A model generated the notes under the pieces. That model saw only the letters and a list, made by a program, of their open reading frames with translations, was not told where the DNA came from and made no database searches. A stretch of 64,000 nucleotides of DNA from an uncultured delta proteobacterium (lineage in GTDB: Bacteria; Desulfobacterota; Binatia; JACPRU01): positions 1 through 64,000 of the forward strand of contig CAVUWD010000013.1 in the NCBI GenBank assembly GCA_963745025.1, written 5' to 3'. The stretch's first letter is position 1, and every line of letters starts with the position of its first letter. Shown here in pieces: positions 1,272-41,290 of the stretch. A program made the translations under genes and the position numbers.

Positions 1272-1724
1272 ATGGAGAGAGACGTCCTGATCCGACTTCA
1301 GCGCCTCGAGCGCGATAACCGCATCTTCAAGTATTCGTTCGTCTCGTTGCTCGGCGTCGTGTTCCTCGCATGCGTGGTCGCTGCGACGTCGGTGTCCCCG
1401 ATACCCGAGGAGATCGTCGCGCGATCCTTTCGAGTCATCGGCAAGAACGGCGAGAACACCGGGCTTCTCTCCGCGACCGACGACGGCTACGTGGGTCTCT
1501 TCTTCCGTGACGCCAAGTTCAAGATGCGGTTCATGACGCTGATGACGCCGGGGGGTGATTTGACCATGTCGTTCGCGGACGCAGCCTTGAAGAACCGCCT
1601 GGAGATCGGCGCGATCCCGGAGGGCTCCGGCAAGGAATATTCGCTCCGGCTGCTTCGCAGCGATGGTTCGGAAGCCTGGAAGCCGCCGGTGCGGAATGAA
1701 GTGGTGTCGACCCCGGCTCGCTGA
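1272..1724 (+). CDS. Hypothetical membrane-anchored protein
   Basis: RLQRLERDNR short coil, one TM helix, then a beta-rich region (EEIVARSFRVIG); ATG at 1272. Confidence 0.65.
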   Translation: MERDVLIRLQRLERDNRIFKYSFVSLLGVVFLACVVAATSVSPIPEEIVARSFRVIGKNGENTGLLSATDDGYVGLFFRDAKFKMRFMTLMTPGGDLTMSFADAALKNRLEIGAIPEGSGKEYSLRLLRSDGSEAWKPPVRNEVVSTPAR

Positions 1725-1775
1725 GCCCGCCGCTCACTCGACCCCCATCGATCTCCGGTGAGATCGCCGGGGTCT

Positions 1776-33019: not shown

Positions 33020-33634
33020 TCAATCGAGAAAGCGGACGCGGCCGGTCCTGAGGTCGTAGATCGCGCCGACGAGCTTCATCTTACCCTCGGCCCTCCGCGC
33101 TCGCCCTTCCGGCGACTCGAGGAGCCGGCGCATGGACCAGCGCACGTTGGCCTCCACCGCGGCCTGGAGCCGCTCTTCGGGGGGCAGCGCGGGATCCACG
33201 TCCGCGAGGCCCGGCAACATGCTCTGTATGATCACCTCGATGCGGCTGCGCTGGCGGACGCCATGAAGCTTCGCGGCGAGCGCCGCTTCGACCGCTCCGC
33301 AGCGTTCGTGCCCGAGCACGACGAACAGCGGCGTCGCGAGGTGGATGCCCGCGTATTGCAGGGTGCCCGCGACCGCCGGCAAGACGACGTTCCCGGCGAC
33401 GCGCACGATGAAAAGCTCGCCGAAACCGGCGTCGAAGACCAGCTCCGGCGGCACCCTCGAGTCGCTGCAGCCGAGGACCGTCGCGTAGGGATGCTGCTTC
33501 TTCGCGAGGCTGGCGAGCACCTCCTTCTGCACGGTAGGGAAGCGCGCCGTGCCGCGCACGAAGCGCCGGTTGCCGGCGGCGAGCCGTGCGAGAGCCGCGT
33601 CGGCGGAGCGGGGGTATACCGGTTTGCGGGTCAC
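33020..33634 (-). CDS. Beta-class carbonic anhydrase
   Basis: CSDSRV, RVAGN and GHERCGAV Zn ligands; GAIYDL.TG.V. Confidence 0.95.
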   Translation of the reverse strand: MTRKPVYPRSADAALARLAAGNRRFVRGTARFPTVQKEVLASLAKKQHPYATVLGCSDSRVPPELVFDAGFGELFIVRVAGNVVLPAVAGTLQYAGIHLATPLFVVLGHERCGAVEAALAAKLHGVRQRSRIEVIIQSMLPGLADVDPALPPEERLQAAVEANVRWSMRRLLESPEGRARRAEGKMKLVGAIYDLRTGRVRFLD

Positions 33635-33710: not shown

Positions 33711-34276
33711 CTACGGGGTCAGCGCCTTCTCGATCGCCGCGAGGACCACCGCTCGCCGCCCACGTCGAGGAGCAGCCTCTCGAGGTGGCCGGTCGCGGCG
33801 ACGATCCCCCGGGCGCGCTCCAGGAGGTCATTGCGAAAAGTCTTGAGCTCGCGGGGAGAGAGAATCTTCTTCAGCTCCTCGGCATAGAGAAACCAGATCT
33901 TCCTGAGCTCGGGGTCCGGGCCCTTGTGCAGTCGGTCCTCCAGCATCCGGTACGGCCTCGTGCCGGGACGGACACCTTGTTTTTCGCCCGCGGCGAGCAC
34001 GCTCTTGGCCTCGCTCTCGCTGAGATCCCCGTCCGCCCAGGCGATCTCGACGAGGGGGTAGAGCTGGAAGGCGTTCATCAGCTCGCCGTTGAGCTGCGCC
34101 GCCACCAACCGGTCGAGGACCTGCTCGTTCGTCACGCCGGTCGCCTTGCGGATGCTCTCCTTGTCGACCTTCTTCTGAAAGACCGCCTTCAGCTTCTCGA
34201 GGAGCTCGAACTCCTTCTTACGGAAGTACTCCTCCTCCAAATACATCTCTCGGTTCCGGAAGATGTCCTTGGCCAT
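33711..34276 (-). CDS. Protein with an IF1/zeta-like N-terminal helix and a TerB-like domain
   Basis: GAGG RBS; FRNRE..LEEEYFRKKEFELLEKLK; PLVEIAWADGDLSESE TerB-type motif. A probable frameshift near 33750 would restore the ending VLAAIEKALTP* (stop at 33711). Confidence 0.75.
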
Positions 34277-34331
34277 GGCTCGCTACCTCGTGTGGTGATT
34301 TAGCACGGTGCGCCGAACTTGCCGAGCGGAG

Positions 34332-35288
34332 CTATGCTTCCGCCGCGAGCTGCCGGCGGGCGGCGGCGAGTTCCTTCCGCTGCGCGGCGCTCACCTCGGG
34401 ATAGCGCAGATCGAGCGAGGCGAGCGCATCGATGATTGCCGCCGCCACGACCACGCGCGTGAACCACTTGTTGTCGGCGGGCACCACGTACCACGGGGCC
34501 CCCTCGGTGGCAGTCTCGCGGATCGCTTCCTCGTAAGCGTCCATGTAGGCGTCCCAGTGGCGGCGCTCGCGCACGTCGTTGGCGGAGAATTTCCAGTTCT
34601 TCTCGGGATTCTCGAGGCGCTCGAGGAACCGCCGCTTCTGCTCGTCCCGCGAGACGTAGAGGAAGAACTTGCGGATGAGCACGCCGTTGCGGCCGAGGTA
34701 GCGCTCGAACGTCCGGATGTCCTTGTACCTCTCGTCCCAGATCTTCTTGCCGACGAGCTCGGCGGGCACTTTCTGCGCCGCCAGGATCTCCGGATGTACC
34801 CGCACGACGAGCACGTCCTCGTAGTAGGATCGATTGAAGATGCCGATGCGGCCGCGCTCGGGCATCTTCACGTGCGTTCGCCACAGGTAGTCGTGATCGA
34901 GGTCGATGGACGTCGGGGCCTTGAAGGACGTCACCTCGCATCCCTGGGGGTTGACGCCGGACATGACGTGTTTGATCGCGCCGTCCTTGCCGGCCGCATC
35001 CATCGCCTGGAAGACCAACAGGAGCGCCCAGCGATCCGCGGCCCAGAGACGGTCCTGGAGATCGGTCAACGCCCGGATGCCGATCTGCAGCGCCTCCTTG
35101 GCGCGCGGCTTGTCCTCCGAGCCGATCCCGGCCGTGTCGCCCGGATCGACGTCCTTCAGGCGGAAGCCCCTTCCTTTGCTGATTCGGTATGGCTCGGCGA
35201 ACTTGTGAGCGCGCTTGACGAACTGCTTCAGCGAGAGATCGGCCGGAGGCTCGTCGCTGGACGGGGCACGCTTTGCGTCATTGGCCAT
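34332..35288 (-). CDS. ppk2: Polyphosphate kinase 2 family (class III-like)
   Basis: QAMDAAGKDG Walker A, SFKAP, IFNRSYYEDVL, KNWKFS, APWYVVPADNKW. Confidence 0.95.
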   Translation of the reverse strand: MANDAKRAPSSDEPPADLSLKQFVKRAHKFAEPYRISKGRGFRLKDVDPGDTAGIGSEDKPRAKEALQIGIRALTDLQDRLWAADRWALLLVFQAMDAAGKDGAIKHVMSGVNPQGCEVTSFKAPTSIDLDHDYLWRTHVKMPERGRIGIFNRSYYEDVLVVRVHPEILAAQKVPAELVGKKIWDERYKDIRTFERYLGRNGVLIRKFFLYVSRDEQKRRFLERLENPEKNWKFSANDVRERRHWDAYMDAYEEAIRETATEGAPWYVVPADNKWFTRVVVAAAIIDALASLDLRYPEVSAAQRKELAAARRQLAAEA

Positions 35289-35432: not shown

Positions 35433-36911
35433 CTACTCGGGATGCACCTGCCGACCTTGCTTCGGGACGAACGCATCGAGCGCCTCGCGCCGCAGCACAT
35501 AGATGCCGGGATGCGCGGCTTCTTCCTGGCGCCATCCGCCGCCGAGCGCCTTGTAGATCTGAACGGCGGAAACGAGCTGATTGAGCTCGTTGCGCGCCAG
35601 CAAGATCTCGGCGGGAAACAGCTCCTGCTGTGAGTCGAGCACTTCGAAGTAGCTCGAAAAGCCGTCCATGTAGCGCACCAGCGCCACCCGAACGGCCTCC
35701 TGAAGCGCCGCGACCTGACGCCTGCGCTCGACTCCCGCGGCCGCGAACTTCTGCCGCGCCACCAGCGCGCTGGAAACATCGCCGAGCGCGTTCAGCACGG
35801 TCTGCTCGTAGGCGAGCACCGCCGCCTGCCAGTCGACGACGCTGCCCTTGTAGCCATAGTAGAGCCTTCCACCCTGGAACAGCGGGCCCGTGATCGAGGC
35901 GCCGATCGCCCACACGTTGCCGGCGCTCTTGACGATCTTGTCGATGTCTCCCGACTGCCCGCCGTACAGGGAAGTGAGCCCGAAGCGGGGGAAAAAGTCG
36001 CCGACGGCGACGCCGACCAGGGCGTTGGTCGCGACCACGTTTTGTTCCGCCGCCAAAACGTCCGGGCGGCGCTCGAGCAGCGTCGACGGCAGCCCCGGAG
36101 GAACGTCGGGTGGAGGAGGCTGATCGCCGAGATCGGCGCCGCGAGCGATCTCACCCGGCTGGCGGCCGAGCAGAATGCTCAGCTGGTTCTCCTTGGCGAC
36201 GATCTGTCTCTCGATCTCCGGGATCGTCGCCGCGGCGTCGGCGAACGCCGCCTCGGCTCGCGAGGTCGCCAGTTTGTTTCCGACTCCCCCGACCAGCTTT
36301 CGCGTGAATAGGTCGAGCGTCCCTTGGAACGCGTCGCGCGTGCGCTTGGCGATCTCGAGCTCGAGATCGAGCTCGCGGAGCTCGAAGTAGGCCTGCGCCA
36401 CGTCGGTGATCACGTTGAGCACCACTGCGCGACGAACGTCCTCGGTTGCGAACAGATCGGCCAGCGAGGCTTCGGTCGCGCGGCGAATGCGCCCCCAGAC
36501 GTCGATCTCCCAAGCCATCTGGAACGCCCCGAGAAAGACGTTCCCCGTCTCGTTCGGGAAGTCCGGGGATACGAAGAATTTGCCGCGCACCGCTTCGCCG
36601 GTGTAACCCACCTGCGGCATGAGATCCGCGCGCGTGACGCCGACGCTGTAGCGTGCCCGCTCGACCCGCGCGGCGGCGATGCGGGCATCGTAGTTGGCGA
36701 CGAGCGCCTCTTCGACCAAGCCCTTGAGCGTGGGATCCTGAAAGACCTCCCACCAGGGCAGATCCGCGAGCGACTTTTCGTCCGACGGGGCTTCCGCGCC
36801 GCGGTAGCCGGCCGGCGCCTGAACCGTCGGCCGCGAGTAGTTCGGCCCCACCGCGCACCCGGAAAGCGCGAAGGCGACGACCGTGGCGAGGACCAGCGCC
36901 GAGTGCTTCAT
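35433..36911 (-). CDS. RND efflux outer-membrane lipoprotein (NodT/OprM family)
   Basis: Lipobox LSG-C-AVGPNY, WEIDVWGRIRR, LLERRPDV, YKALGGGW; ATG at 36911 overlaps the permease stop. Confidence 0.95.
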   Translation of the reverse strand: MKHSALVLATVVAFALSGCAVGPNYSRPTVQAPAGYRGAEAPSDEKSLADLPWWEVFQDPTLKGLVEEALVANYDARIAAARVERARYSVGVTRADLMPQVGYTGEAVRGKFFVSPDFPNETGNVFLGAFQMAWEIDVWGRIRRATEASLADLFATEDVRRAVVLNVITDVAQAYFELRELDLELEIAKRTRDAFQGTLDLFTRKLVGGVGNKLATSRAEAAFADAAATIPEIERQIVAKENQLSILLGRQPGEIARGADLGDQPPPPDVPPGLPSTLLERRPDVLAAEQNVVATNALVGVAVGDFFPRFGLTSLYGGQSGDIDKIVKSAGNVWAIGASITGPLFQGGRLYYGYKGSVVDWQAAVLAYEQTVLNALGDVSSALVARQKFAAAGVERRRQVAALQEAVRVALVRYMDGFSSYFEVLDSQQELFPAEILLARNELNQLVSAVQIYKALGGGWRQEEAAHPGIYVLRREALDAFVPKQGRQVHPE

Positions 36912-39900
36912 GAATGTGCCCGCTCGTGCGCAGGGACAGCCGCGGCGGGGACTTCGACCCTCTCCCCCTTCTTTCTTCCGAGGCCCTCCACGAAGGCGAA
37001 GTTGCCGGGGATGAGGAAGACGCCCATGAAGGTCGCTATGAGCATTCCGAAGAACACCGCCGTGCCCATGACGTTCTGAGCCCCCGCGCCCGCGCCGCTT
37101 GCTATCATCAGCGGCACCACGCCGAGGATGAACGCGAACGCGGTCATCAGGATCGGCCGGAAGCGCAGCCGTGCGGATTCGAGCGCGGCCTCCTCGACCG
37201 GCATGCCCTCCTCGTGCTTGGCCTTGGCGAACTCGACGATCAGGATCGCGTTCTTGGCGGCGAGGCCGATCAGCATGATGTTGCCGACCTGCACGAAGAC
37301 GTTGTTGTCGTAGCCCATGAGCCAGACGCCGAAGAACGAGCCGAGGGCGACGAGCGGCGAGCCGAGCAGCACCGCCCACGGCAACCGCCAGCTCTCGTAG
37401 AGGGCCGCGAGCAGCAAAAACACGAAGACGATCGCGAGCACGAACGTCGGGCCCGCCGGCGGTGCGACCTTCTCCTGGTATGACATCTGACTGTAGGCGT
37501 AGCCCATTTCCTTCGGCATCGTCTGCGCAAACACCTCCTCGAGTGCCGCCAGCGTCTGGCCCGAGGCGTAGCCGCGCCCGGACGCTCCCTGGAGCTCGAC
37601 GGAACGGAGCATGTTGAAGCGCGTGACGAGCTCGGTGCCGTCCTGGGTGCTGATCCGGACGAGCGTGGAGAGCGGGACCATCTGGTCCGTGGTCTTGCTG
37701 CGCACGTAGATCTTGCCGATGTCGTCAGCCTTGCGTCGGTAGTCCGAATCGGCCTGGACGTACACGCGGAACAGCCGCCCGAAGCGGTTGAAGTCGTTCA
37801 CGTACGTGCCGCCGAGCACGGCCGACATCGCCTGGAAGACTTCGTCTATCGGGACGCCGACTAGCCGCGCCTTCTCGCGGTCGAGGTCGACCTTGACCTG
37901 CGGGTAGCGGGGATCGAACGAGGTGAACAGGTTGCCGATCTCGGGTCGCTGCCGCGCGGCCTCCATGAACTGGCGGCTGAGCGCGCCGAGCTGGTCCACG
38001 CTGAGCGTCCCGCTCCGGTCCTGGAGGAGGAAGTTGAAGCCCGCTGCGGCGCCGAAGCCCGAGATCGTCGGGAGGTTGAACGGGAAGATGATCGCGTCCG
38101 GGATGCGGGAGAACTCTTTCTGTAGCCGCGCCATGATGCCGGTGACGTGCAGCTCGGGGGAGTGGCGCTCATCCCACGGCTTCAGGCGAACGAAGAGCGT
38201 GCCGAAGTTCGGCTGGTAGGTCGAGGTGACGATGCCGTAGCCGCCGACCGTCTGAAAGGACTCGACTCCCTCGGTCTTTTCGACGATCTGCTCGACTTTC
38301 GCCAGGACCGCGCTGGTGCGCTCGAGCGAGGAGGCAGGCGGCAGCGTGACGTTGATGCCCATGATGCCCTGATCCTCGTCGGGAACGAAGCCCGCGGGAA
38401 GCGCGCTGCCGAAGAGGCCGGCGCCGACAGCGACCCCCGCGACGATGACGATCGTGAGCGTGGCCCGCCGCACCAAGAGGCGCGTCCAGTTGACGTACCC
38501 TCCCGTGGTCGCGTCGAACGCCTTGTTGAAGAGCGAATAGAACTTGCCGAGAAGGCCGGTGGTCTTTGCGTGGTGCGGCTTCAGCAACATCGCCGCAAGC
38601 GCCGGCGAGAGCGACAGCGCGTTGAAGGCCGACAGCAGAACCGAGATCGCGATGGTCAGCGCGAACTGCTGGTACATCCGGCCGGTGAGACCGCCGAGGA
38701 ACGCCACGGGAATGAACACCGCGGAGAGGATGAGCGCGATGCCGACGACGGCGCCCGACACCTCCTTCATCGCCTGCTGCGTCGCTTCCTTCGGCGCCAG
38801 GCCGTGCTCGATGTGATGCATGACGGCTTCGACGACGACGATCGCGTCGTCGACGACGATGCCGATCGCGAGCACGAGGCCGAACATCGACAAGGTGTTC
38901 ACCGAGAAGCCGAGCAGCGGGAAGAAGATGAACGTGCCGAGCAGCGAGACCGGGACGGTCACGAGGGGAATGAACGTCGCGCGGAAGTTCTGCAAGAAGA
39001 CGAAGACGACCAGCGTGACGAGAACGACCGCCTCGAAGAAGGTGTGGACGATCGACTCGATCGACGCTTCCACCGCCGGCGTCGTGTCGTACACGATCTT
39101 GTAGTCGAGGTCGGGCGGGAAGATCTCCTTGGCGTGCTTCATGGTCTCGTAGATCGCCTCGGAGGCCTTCAGCTGGTTCGCCCCGGGCAGCAGATAGACG
39201 GCCATCGCGCCGCCGGGCTTGCCGTTCAGCCGGCCGAATGAGTTGTAGTCTTGCGAGCCGAGCTCTGTCCGCCCCACGTCCTTCACGCGGATGATCGCGC
39301 CGGTTTCGGTCTCGCGGATGATGATGTTGTCGAACTCTTCCGTCGTGACGAGGCGCCCGGGAGCGGCCACCGTGTAGGTGAACTCCTGGTCCTTGGGCGA
39401 GGGCGCCATTCCCACGCGCCCCGCGGGAGCCTGCAGGTTCTGCTCCTTGATGGCGGAAATGACGTCGGAGGGCGTGAGGCCGAGCTTGGCGAGCTTGTCG
39501 GGGTTGATCCAGATGCGCATGCCGTAGTCGGTGCCGCCGAATAGGTCGACCTGGGCGATGCCGGGGATGCGCAGCAGCTGGTCGCGCAGGTTGATGCCGC
39601 AGTAGTTGATCAGGAAGTTCGCGTCGTAGCTTCCGTTCGGTGAGTAGAGCGAGATCACCATGAGGATGCTCGGGCTCATCTTCTTGACCGTGACGCCCTG
39701 AGCGATGACTTCCTGGGGCAGGCGCGCCTGGGCGATGGAGACGCGGTTCTGGGTGAGAACGTTCGCCGTGTCCTGGTTGACGCCCACGGTGAAGTTGACG
39801 TCGAGCTGCATGCGGCCGTCGCTGGTGTTGGACGACTTCATGTAGATCATGTTCTCGACGCCGTTCACCTCCTGCTCGATCGGAGTGGCCACGGACTGCT

Positions 39901-40072
39901 CAACGGCCACGGCCGAGGCGCCCGGGTAGGTCGCGGTCACGCGTATGTTCGGCGGGGCGAGGAATGGGTACTGCTCGATGCTCAGCCCCTTGAGGGTGAA
40001 GAGCCCCATGATCACCGTGATGATCGCGATGACGATCGCGACGATCGGCCGCCGGATGAAGAACTCTGCCAT
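36908..40072 (-). CDS. RND efflux permease, HAE1 (AcrB-like)
   Basis: FFIRRPI, GIVVDDAIVVVE, GLAAKNAILIVEFA, RFRPILMT proton-relay motifs; 1054 aa. Confidence 0.97.
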   Translation of the reverse strand: MAEFFIRRPIVAIVIAIITVIMGLFTLKGLSIEQYPFLAPPNIRVTATYPGASAVAVEQSVATPIEQEVNGVENMIYMKSSNTSDGRMQLDVNFTVGVNQDTANVLTQNRVSIAQARLPQEVIAQGVTVKKMSPSILMVISLYSPNGSYDANFLINYCGINLRDQLLRIPGIAQVDLFGGTDYGMRIWINPDKLAKLGLTPSDVISAIKEQNLQAPAGRVGMAPSPKDQEFTYTVAAPGRLVTTEEFDNIIIRETETGAIIRVKDVGRTELGSQDYNSFGRLNGKPGGAMAVYLLPGANQLKASEAIYETMKHAKEIFPPDLDYKIVYDTTPAVEASIESIVHTFFEAVVLVTLVVFVFLQNFRATFIPLVTVPVSLLGTFIFFPLLGFSVNTLSMFGLVLAIGIVVDDAIVVVEAVMHHIEHGLAPKEATQQAMKEVSGAVVGIALILSAVFIPVAFLGGLTGRMYQQFALTIAISVLLSAFNALSLSPALAAMLLKPHHAKTTGLLGKFYSLFNKAFDATTGGYVNWTRLLVRRATLTIVIVAGVAVGAGLFGSALPAGFVPDEDQGIMGINVTLPPASSLERTSAVLAKVEQIVEKTEGVESFQTVGGYGIVTSTYQPNFGTLFVRLKPWDERHSPELHVTGIMARLQKEFSRIPDAIIFPFNLPTISGFGAAAGFNFLLQDRSGTLSVDQLGALSRQFMEAARQRPEIGNLFTSFDPRYPQVKVDLDREKARLVGVPIDEVFQAMSAVLGGTYVNDFNRFGRLFRVYVQADSDYRRKADDIGKIYVRSKTTDQMVPLSTLVRISTQDGTELVTRFNMLRSVELQGASGRGYASGQTLAALEEVFAQTMPKEMGYAYSQMSYQEKVAPPAGPTFVLAIVFVFLLLAALYESWRLPWAVLLGSPLVALGSFFGVWLMGYDNNVFVQVGNIMLIGLAAKNAILIVEFAKAKHEEGMPVEEAALESARLRFRPILMTAFAFILGVVPLMIASGAGAGAQNVMGTAVFFGMLIATFMGVFLIPGNFAFVEGLGRKKGERVEVPAAAVPAHERAHS

Positions 40073-40086
40073 GGCCTGCTCCCGCC

Positions 40087-41290
40087 CTAGTGGCTCGCTG
40101 CCGGTTCTGCTTTGGCGCTCGTCGCCGCCTCTGCCGACTTCGGGTTGACGGTCGCGCCGTCGCGCACCTTCTGTAGGCCCTCGACGACGATTCGTTCTCC
40201 CGGCTTGAGGCCTTCGTTGATTACCCAGAGATCGCCGATGCGCGCACCGGCCTTGACCGTCCGCATGGCGACCTTGTTGTCGGCTCCGACCACCGCGACC
40301 TGATGGCTGCCCTGGAGCTCCTGCACGGCGCGCTGCGGCACGAGGAGGGCGCCTTGCCTGGTCTCGGTGGTCGCGCGCACCTTCGCGTACTGGCCGGGCC
40401 GCAAGAGATTGCGAGGGTTCGGGAAGAGGGCCACGATCGTCATGGTGCCGGTCTTTATCTCGACTTCGCGGTTGGCGACCGATGCCCTCCCTCGCTCCGG
40501 GTAGACGTTGCCGTCGGCAAGGATCAGCTCGAGCTTCGCCTCACGTGGCTTCGGGTTGTTGAGTTCGATGCCGTCCGCGAACCGCAGGTACTCTTGCTCG
40601 CTGATCGGGAACGAGACCTTGATCGGGTCGACCTGCGACACCGTCGTGAGCAGCGTGTTCTCGCTCACGAGGTCGCCGATTTGCGCGACGGCGATGCCCG
40701 CGATGCCATCGATGGGTGATTTGACCTGCGTCCAATCGAGGTTCAGCTGCGCCTTCTCGACCACGGCCCGAGCCGAGTCGACGGCCGCCTTGGCGGCGCG
40801 CCTCGCCTGAATGGCGTTGTCGAGCTCCTCCTGGCTGATCGCCTTCTCGGCGGCCAGCGGCGTATAGCGCGTGACGTCTTGCTCCGTCTTGGTCCGTATG
40901 GCTTCGTCGCGCCCGAGGTCGCCCTTGGCCTGATCGAGCGCCGCTTGATACGGCCGCGGATCGATCAGGAACAGCAGGTCGCCGGCGCGGACGAGGGTGC
41001 CTTCCTGGTAGCTGCGTTGCTGCAGATAACCCTGAACGCGGGCTCGAATCTGAGCTGTGATGTTGCCCTCGGTGGTGCCGACCCACTCGGCGAAAATGGG
41101 CACGTCCTTTTGGATCACTTCGGCGACGACGACGTCCGGGGGCGGGGGTGGAGGCGGCGCGGACTTGGCTGCACGCAGAGAGTGTGAGCGCTACGACGAC
41201 CGCGGCTTTGAAGACGGCAATCTCCAAGGGGCCGCGATCGGCAGCGGGAATCGCTTCGACCGTCGCACGGCCGATTCTTCGGCTTGTCAT
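40087..41290 (-). CDS. RND periplasmic adaptor (MFP); one frameshift near 41168
   Basis: Lipobox LSA-C lies in ORF 40541-41443; IRARVQGYL, IDPRPYQAAL, SPIDG and GLKPGERIVVEG lie in ORF 40087-41118. Confidence 0.9.

Follow-up and report, generated by a model that had tools for sequence, protein, structure and literature searches.

A TerB-like protein of an uncultured delta proteobacterium with an N-terminal helix resembling that of the ATPase inhibitor IF1

The stretch of DNA analysed here (the window) comprises 64,000 nucleotides of contig CAVUWD010000013.1 from an uncultured delta proteobacterium. A gene at positions 33711-34276 on its minus strand belongs to a real family and encodes a conserved protein of about 188 amino acids, in which a long N-terminal helix is followed by a TerB-like helical domain. 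The helix resembles the inhibitory helix of mitochondrial IF1, and at the level of sequence this likeness is reproducible, specific and correctly placed, yet short and sub-threshold. Tentatively, the protein may be regarded as a modular, conditional F1-ATPase inhibitor of IF1-like type, a reading that we hold to be possible rather than probable. What is claimed is that the protein works like IF1, not that it is a member of a known inhibitor family, as it lies outside IATP, zeta and, strictly, TerB by curated thresholds. A separate class of inhibitor of this kind had been proposed in an initial annotation of the gene, whose sequence-level predictions were borne out wherever they were tested and whose interpretation as a whole appears partly supported.

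The features of the gene are as follows:
33711..34276, minus strand: gene of the helix plus TerB-like protein, ancestral frame, 188 amino acids
33719..34276, minus strand: open reading frame (ORF) as assembled, 185 amino acids, ending at 33719
33748..33749, minus strand: point at which one base present in three relatives is missing; the frame shifts after ...GGER and the last 12 residues are replaced
34286..34289, minus strand: GAGG, likely ribosome-binding site, 9 nt 5' of the ATG, read from the sequence
34139..34273, minus strand: long N-terminal helix, residues 2-46, from the AlphaFold2 (AF2) model of a 92%-identical relative, P0003
34175..34264, minus strand: IF1-like core, residues 5-34, gapless on bovine IF1 21-50, with F6, R9, E14, Y17, F18, L26, L29 and K30
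33711..34099, minus strand: TerB-like all-helical domain, residues ~60-188, from Pfam TerB matches in relatives and VIA-align
34028..34048, minus strand: EIAWADG, invariant acidic/aromatic motif, with E77, A79, W80, A81 and D82 invariant; E89 follows

Likeness of the N-terminal helix to IF1

Residues 6-30 of the window protein read FRNREMYLEEEYFRKKEFELLEKLK, exactly as the initial annotation had quoted them, and the segment of bovine IF1 that it had given (residues 22-46) agrees with the PDB chain. Counted from the translation and that chain, the gapless alignment of the two contains the 12 identities in 25 positions that had been claimed. According to Bason et al. 2011, bovine IF1 contacts F1 through F22, A28, E30, Y33, F34, Q41, L42 and L45; E30 forms one important salt bridge, to R408 of beta-DP, F34 occupies a pocket of beta-DP V404/S405/R408, and Y33, L42 and L45 touch helices 2 and 6 of beta-DP (PMC3041923). 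The same paper describes F22 and R25 as essential, R25 without making contact, treats K24, E26, E29, E31, R32 and R35 as unimportant, and gives F at the Y33 position of yeast IF1. Seven of eight bovine F1-binding positions have their counterparts in the window protein (F6, R9, E14, Y17, F18, L26 and L29), with Y12 replacing A28 at the eighth. Included are F6, E14, Y17, F18, L26 and L29, the equivalents of the reported contacts F22, E30, Y33, F34, L42 and L45 (PMC3041923), all six of which had been named in the initial annotation.

Conservation was counted over 80 species-level relatives, the best 80 kept from 163 stretches encoding one, and the sets of N-terminal segments add the window protein (81). 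E14 and F18 are invariant (80/80 each), and position 17 is Y in 43 and F in 37. Mostly conserved are R9 (60/80), F6 (48/80, with L in 21), L13 (57/80) and E/D15 (71/80), followed along the helix by L25 (62/80), V/I/L26 (73/80), K28 (56/80), L/M/F29 (62/80) and R/K30 (72/80). The motif F-x2-R-x4-E-x2-[YF]-F, whose conservation had been predicted, is found with its E, [YF] and final F in all 80 relatives, its R in 60 and its first F in 48. At a register offset of 16, the invariant E14, Y/F17 and F18 correspond to IF1 E30, Y33 and F34, and the next-best conserved family positions to IF1 R25, F22, L42, L45 and K46.

The Pfam family IATP (PF04568; gathering cut-off 25 bits) is the top match of the full window protein (E 0.01, 16.7 bits, residues 3-36 on profile 49-82), and the window helix alone matches it at E 8.8e-4 and 20.1 bits among 24,736 Pfam models. 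Over the same collection of families, IATP matches 44 of the 81 N-terminal segments (best E 6.6e-5), and the next family matches 3. In this comparison with the IATP and zeta profiles, which had been suggested, the IATP match was recurrent but always sub-threshold, and a zeta match was missing from all 81 segments. In the reverse direction, a 41-column N-terminal profile built from the 81 sequences was searched against 177,635 distinct PDB sequences and yielded three matches at E<=10, all of them bovine IF1 (E 0.04, 0.16 and 0.19) and gapless, with family positions 5-34 on IF1 21-50.

Six-frame scans with IATP placed the window ORF first in its own 5.6-Mb genome (E 0.0096, 18.6 bits); a 111-amino-acid Zn-ribbon protein on contig C9 came second (E 0.05), and the other two matches lay at E>=0.17. 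Across 121 genomes of the phylum no match rose above the cut-off, and the five best (E 1.9e-4 to 0.0099, 23.7 to 18.4 bits) were the window ORF and four orthologues of the C9 Zn-ribbon protein. Control genomes gave matches in 3/14 at E<=0.5 and in 8/14 at E<=10. These genome scans suggest that the IATP model is not triggered by charged helices generally, but by one kind of N-terminus. On the evidence of the six-frame scans and the PDB search, the helix does score better than other natural charged helices, a comparison for which the initial annotation had asked.

In the AF2 model of P0003, which is intact (49 sequences; mean predicted local distance difference test (pLDDT) score 80.5), residues 2-46 form a single helix projecting from the domain, with low-to-middling confidence over residues 1-30 (pLDDT 57-65). 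An intermolecular interface is suggested, because the invariant aromatics sit on this projecting helix. The helix is a conserved, exposed and portable interaction element.

Several other searches were less informative. The ESM Atlas returned no usable match for residues 1-45, and NCBIfam nothing but far sub-threshold DnaX rows. Two candidates for short stand-alone forms of the helix (proteins of 30-100 amino acids) were both fragments of the same family, and this search says little because it depends on shared 5-residue words. Complex prediction with the genome's own alpha (residues 96-504) and beta (residues 80-469) subunits and the 41-residue helix, with alignments for each, gave scores of 0.43, 0.44 and 0.37; two partner-replaced controls gave 0.00 and 0.00 and an alpha-replaced control gave 0.45, and the result is weightless either way, speaking neither for nor against binding.

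The gene, its family and a second scaffold

M1 is taken as the start codon because just two codons separate it from the preceding stop in the stop-to-stop frame and GAGG lies 9 nt before the ATG. Relatives are 188 amino acids long and end in ...GGERKV.AAIEKALTP, and the last 12 residues of the window copy differ. An 819-nt metagenome contig from a relative of ~96% identity contains an extra base at exactly 33749/33748. As three relatives and this contig carry the base absent in the window, 33711-34276 can be regarded as the ancestral gene, and to that extent the coordinates given in the initial annotation stand; as assembled, however, 33711 is the stop of another frame and the ORF ends at 33719. 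In the window copy, either the reading frame is truly shifted or the assembly is wrong, in both cases with an effect confined to the last 12 residues. An assembly indel is as likely as a real mutation, since the same assembly splits an alpha-subunit gene on contig C8 into two frames.

No sequencing run contained half of the stretch's words, and the uncovered parts in X1 and X2 were uninformative. In a sediment metatranscriptome library (run X19), a contig of 227 nt covers window positions 34056-34271, the 5' part of the gene including the helix, with 6 letters different; since such libraries can contain DNA, this contig hints at expression in a relative and no more. Elsewhere in the same genome, C16:642100-642411 (minus strand) holds the 3' half of a second family member from a different subclade (profile positions 86-189, E 2e-39). 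Its N-terminal half is found in no frame upstream, and this segment is therefore considered a gene remnant.

With regard to the C-terminal domain, VEIAWADGDLSESE was found at residues 76-89 of the window protein, and E77, A79, W80, A81, D82 and E89 of the pattern EIAWADG..(5)..E are invariant in alignments of both 25 and 49 sequences. Pfam TerB matches 18 of 25 relatives (best E 3.6e-5) and DUF533 matches 14 of 25. The window protein itself has no TerB match at E<=10, and the relatives' scores, where shown, are 18.3 and 21.2 bits, below the TerB (PF05099) cut-off of 24.4 bits. In the AF2 model of P0003, the helical domain is predicted with confidence and starts at about residue 50. When model residues 63-187 were compared with 48,161 chains by VIA-align, 2ou3_B ranked first (Z 8.1, root-mean-square deviation 3.4, 104 aligned) and 2h5n_A second (Z 7.9), with the next at 5.6, values under the Z of about 13 below which matches between helical bundles are weak. 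A Foldseek search of the PDB produced no match at E<=0.001, with 2ou3_A sixth in rank. 'TerB-like' is a fair label in view of the VIA-align ranks, the profile matches of the relatives and the invariant EIAWADG...E motif. The earlier description of the remainder of the protein as TerB-like and not zeta-like agrees with these matches, and no zeta match was obtained. We take an A-D-G ... E acidic motif to be TerB-defining. The TerB and DUF533 families are associated by name with metal or tellurite stress.

Judged from sequence, the TerB-like domain is one of at least two scaffolds bearing the IF1-like helix. The other is represented in the same genome by the following gene:
C9:66502-66834 (= L002:1525-1860 / L093:1501-1833), plus strand: Zn-ribbon gene whose first ~45 residues are the IF1-like helix

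The product of this gene is the 111-amino-acid Zn_ribbon_TFIIB protein mentioned above (PF13453, E 4e-12), with its IF1-like stretch at residues 8-39. Its flanking genes are a rhomboid-like membrane protein and a riboflavin-synthase-like gene, both names having been read by eye only. A hidden Markov model of the TerB-type helix, searched against 75,087 ORFs of the genome, found the C9 Zn-ribbon protein at E 0.0041, with the next match at 2.2. On a larger scale, the helix profile gave 687 matches at E<=0.001 among 1.84 billion representatives (50% identity). The best 150 of these 687 comprise 63 proteins with the TerB-like domain, 39 short fragments, 1 complete Zn-ribbon protein and 47 classed as 'other', the last including at least six truncated Zn-ribbon proteins (recognized by eye) and many frameshifted or cut members. 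P0195, a complete Zn-ribbon protein of 98 amino acids, matches the helix profile at 47 bits and PF13453 at E 1.5e-16. An AF2 model of the Zn-ribbon protein consists of one long helix (residues 6-50), of middling confidence, before a small globular part. A large Desulfobacterota-type subgroup of the Zn-ribbon proteins retains only the E-E-E-Y-F core and shows no further IF1 resemblance. There is perhaps a third scaffold variant: in L193 (G099:C243), the ORF at 1288-1728 (minus strand) is a 147-amino-acid frame in which the helix motif ...LGFEDAYFRQRDQEKIRALREQ... precedes a degenerate ribbon with fewer Cys pairs, and this frame matches the helix profile at E 6e-6 (in a small ORF set of 29 loci).

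A total of 111 relatives at E<=0.001 were identified among 640 candidates from a set of 5.8 billion proteins. Where a source gives a name, it is nearly always 'hypothetical protein', apart from one 'TerB-like' protein and one trigger-factor-type isomerase; a Candidatus Binatia metagenome-assembled genome (MAG) is the origin of one relative. Among 229 matched stretches in contigs representing one genome per species, 163 code for a relative. The best 80 relatives originate from Binatia or 'delta proteobacterium' MAGs, Phycisphaerae and other Planctomycetota, Acidobacteriota, Myxococcota, Omnitrophota, Verrucomicrobiota, Kiritimatiellia and others, outside the alphaproteobacteria.

The genes next to the family gene are listed below:
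34332-35288, minus strand: PPK2, upstream neighbour in the window
33020-33634, minus strand: beta-class carbonic anhydrase, downstream neighbour in the window
L057, L059, L060, L063, L072, L074 and L078: loci adjoining a P-type ATPase (E1-E2_ATPase, Cation_ATPase_N/C; Pfam confirmed in 2 of the 7)

PPK2 is a neighbour in 0/80 related loci, and the carbonic anhydrase lies directly downstream in 3/80, with distant copies in 2 more. Three clusters of neighbouring ORFs, present at 12-52 loci, proved to be antisense frames of the family gene itself and were dropped. A P-type cation ATPase of ~895 amino acids lies directly downstream, within about 100 nt, in 7/80 loci, which come from two lineages (4 Omnitrophota and 3 Syntrophaceae or 'delta proteobacterium' MAGs). 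The family members at these loci have the shortest N-termini and the most reduced helix, without F6 and R9. In the window, upstream of PPK2, positions 35433-41118 (minus strand) contain an RND efflux set composed of an outer-membrane factor (OEP), an AcrB-type pump (1054 amino acids) and an HlyD-type membrane-fusion protein.

Proposed mechanism and alternative explanations

The target that an IF1-like helix would require is present in the host. The genome carries a complete F-type operon on contig C10 (b', b, delta, alpha, gamma, beta and epsilon), and its beta subunit retains the target segment ...DELSEEDK..V.RAR..., in which V397, R399, A400 and R401 are invariant and R401 equals bovine R408. 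F1 beta subunits generally keep this segment, and an F-type beta subunit (66-79% identical) was found in five of five distant genomes carrying the family. No zeta homologue was detected in the genome, and a scan with PF07345 gave one sub-threshold match elsewhere (E 0.108). Contig C8 bears, at about 63.6-69.6 kb (minus strand), a second F-type alpha/beta pair that is divergent from the C10 copies (about 52% identity); its alpha gene is split between two frames at about 64557, owing to a frameshift or an assembly indel.

We infer binding to F1, inhibition and a sensing role, which might operate in the following way. The product would be a cytoplasmic two-module protein with an exposed N-terminal helix of ~45 residues and a small TerB-like domain that stays outside the enzyme. 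When the cell is de-energised and the ATP synthase reverses, the helix would enter the catalytic alpha/beta interface, where E14 could pair with the conserved Arg after the DELSEED loop and Y17 and F18 could fill the neighbouring hydrophobic pocket, blocking rotation in the hydrolysis direction. The C-terminal domain might make inhibition conditional on a metal or cation, on redox or on oligomeric state, in the role played by the pH-sensing coiled coil of IF1 or the helical bundle of zeta. A broader proposal, that many bacterial phyla possess modular F1 inhibitors in which an IF1-like plug helix is mounted on interchangeable TerB-like or Zn-ribbon sensors, with IF1 descended from them or convergent, is slightly more doubtful.

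A number of observations weigh against an F1 inhibitor. The gene was singled out from a very large number of ORFs precisely for this resemblance, and scores of this kind are inflated by charged amphipathic helices. All IATP matches fall below the 25-bit cut-off (16.7-20.1 bits for the window, 23.7 bits for the best Zn-ribbon cousin), 37 of the 81 N-terminal segments have no IATP match at all, and the Zn-ribbon N-termini match in only 6 of 29, with a joint profile of these N-termini finding no match in the PDB. When the single full-length window protein was searched against the PDB, IF1 was absent among the 25 matches, and a full-length profile ranked IF1 (0.04-0.76) below both calbindin (8.4e-4) and type III polyketide synthases (0.001-0.03). 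At the residue level, the Q41 equivalent is Leu in the window protein, IF1 residues 1-20, which touch gamma, have no counterpart, and position 12 is Tyr in the window clade and elsewhere S in 26, A in 19 and G in 15 of 80; in IF1 the equivalent A28 is described as strictly conserved, and A28V clashes in the bovine complex (PMC3041923). Within 8 kb of the gene, the 80 loci contain no atp gene and no conserved neighbour, and the family occurs in only 2 of 121 sampled genomes of the window's own phylum, yet across many phyla, so its distribution is patchy. Finally, the genome's own epsilon subunit is full length (135 amino acids), and in five other carriers epsilon covers 1-133, 5-133, 2-132, 1-84 and 54-130 of 135, that is, the C-terminal domain in 3/5, or 4/5 counting the partial 54-130. 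As epsilon is full length at home and in most carriers, no missing inhibitor demands replacement. The idea that carriers are genomes without an inhibitory epsilon was accordingly unsupported, with the C-terminal part kept in most of the five others.

These points leave room for other explanations, each of which is rated behind the IF1-like inhibitor. The helix might serve for self-association in small proteins that sense metal or stress, dimerising them as a coiled coil or helical stalk, with the window protein acting through its TerB-like domain. Its IF1 likeness would then be a coincidence or a convergence between amphipathic helices rich in Glu, Lys and Arg. The uniformly sub-threshold IATP matches are compatible with this, as is the matched region of the IATP profile (about 45-92), which extends into the coiled coil of IF1 itself. 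Leu, Ile or Val recur at positions 13, 25, 26 and 29, and in many clades as V32/F33, as in dimeric helices; moreover, both scaffolds are small domains that could require dimerising, the TerB-like domain carries conserved acidic residues of its own (E77, D82 and E89 invariant), and a genomic link to ATP synthase is missing. On the other hand, the positions invariant in the helix (80/80) are a Glu and two adjacent aromatics rather than an aliphatic heptad, the reverse PDB search gave IF1 alone and zero coiled-coil proteins, and the IATP scans of 121 genomes ranked no other charged helices above these N-termini. We consider a dimeriser rather unlikely.

The same degree of doubt applies to docking of the helix on a partner other than F1, such as a P-type cation ATPase, another ATPase or membrane-stress machinery, with the TerB-like or Zn-ribbon domain reporting cation or redox state, which would make the protein a regulator of ion homeostasis. 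The P-type ATPase directly after the gene at seven loci, the link of the TerB and DUF533 names to metal or tellurite stress and the sporadic distribution (2/121 in the phylum), which suits an accessory stress gene, would all fit such a partner. However, this ATPase is missing from 73/80 loci, among them those of every close relative of the window, the members beside it have the most reduced helix, and Pfam and PDB searches gave no similarity of the helix to known P-type ATPase regulators. That the gene is a decaying pseudogene, with nothing functional at these coordinates, is very improbable: the one-base deletion near the 3' end and the second family remnant on C16, of which the 3' half alone is left, could be taken as signs of decay, but of the 188 residues no more than the final 12 are changed, the remainder is 92% identical to an intact relative, and the split alpha gene on C8 fits assembly indel errors. 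The IF1-like inhibitor therefore stays ahead of each single rival.

Significance and comparison with known systems

To our knowledge, IF1 is viewed as a eukaryotic invention and zeta as its sole bacterial counterpart. Outside the alphaproteobacteria, the brakes on ATP hydrolysis are the epsilon C-terminal domain, Mg-ADP inhibition and, in cyanobacteria, AtpTheta, and they are only partly understood. A 2022 review states that BLAST finds no prokaryotic IF1 besides two likely transfers (PMC9317440). On that account, the slot for a prokaryotic IF1-type inhibitor is open. Literature searches, with subscription journals outside their scope, found no description of a bacterial IF1-like TerB or Zn-ribbon protein and nothing for PF13453, zf-TFIIB or 'TFIIB-type zinc ribbon'. 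If confirmed, the window protein would thus extend a known inhibitory principle by a new variant in bacteria, IF1-type inhibition would not be restricted to eukaryotes, and zeta would not be its only bacterial counterpart. Should the helix bind F1, the family would constitute a class of inhibitor that is modular and widespread in bacteria, with sensor domains that could reveal when inhibition is switched on, and would provide a bacterial system for studying IF1-type inhibition, with a bearing on the origin of IF1 and on the targeting of ATP synthase by drugs. Even with another target, a portable and strongly conserved N-terminal interaction helix is common to two families of unknown function (687 representatives), and three of its residues, E14, Y17 and F18, are singled out for mutation.

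IF1 is characterized by a C-terminal antiparallel coiled coil with a pH-sensing His region. With IF1 (PF04568) the window family shares a solvent-exposed N-terminal helix that aligns gaplessly (12/25 identities to bovine 22-46), the counterparts of E30, Y33 and F34 as its invariant residues and those of F22, R25, L42, L45 and K46 as mostly conserved ones, reciprocal and specific, if sub-threshold, matches, and the small size of a protein whose non-inhibitory part is C-terminal. It differs in being bacterial, whereas IF1 is eukaryotic, in scoring below the Pfam cut-off, in its changed A28 and Q41 equivalents, and in a C-terminal part that is globular and TerB-like (or a Zn ribbon) instead of a His-rich antiparallel coiled coil.

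The gene for IF1 is not linked to atp operons. Zeta, too, is encoded outside atp operons and is said to mimic IF1 (PMC10469736; PMC9317440). By analogy with zeta (PF07345 ATPaseInh_sub_z, formerly DUF1476), the putative inhibitory element of the window family lies right at the N-terminus of a protein that is small and helical. The zeta N-terminus presumably has a similar F-x2-R-x4-E-x2-F spacing, which we treat as a lead only. In contrast, PF07345 matches 0/81 helix segments (E<=10) and 0/25 full-length relatives (E<=1), the window family occurs outside the alphaproteobacteria, and its globular part is TerB-like rather than a zeta bundle.

Literature searches found no TerB protein described with this N-terminal helix. 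What the window protein has in common with TerB-like proteins (PF05099 and DUF533, PF04391; 2ou3 and 2h5n) are residues ~60-188 and the acidic A-D-G...E motif. The small Zn_ribbon_TFIIB proteins (PF13453) differ from it in their C-terminal domain, which is unlike the TerB-like domain, and share with it the same N-terminal helix and, in the models, the overall shape, in which a long helix precedes a small domain.

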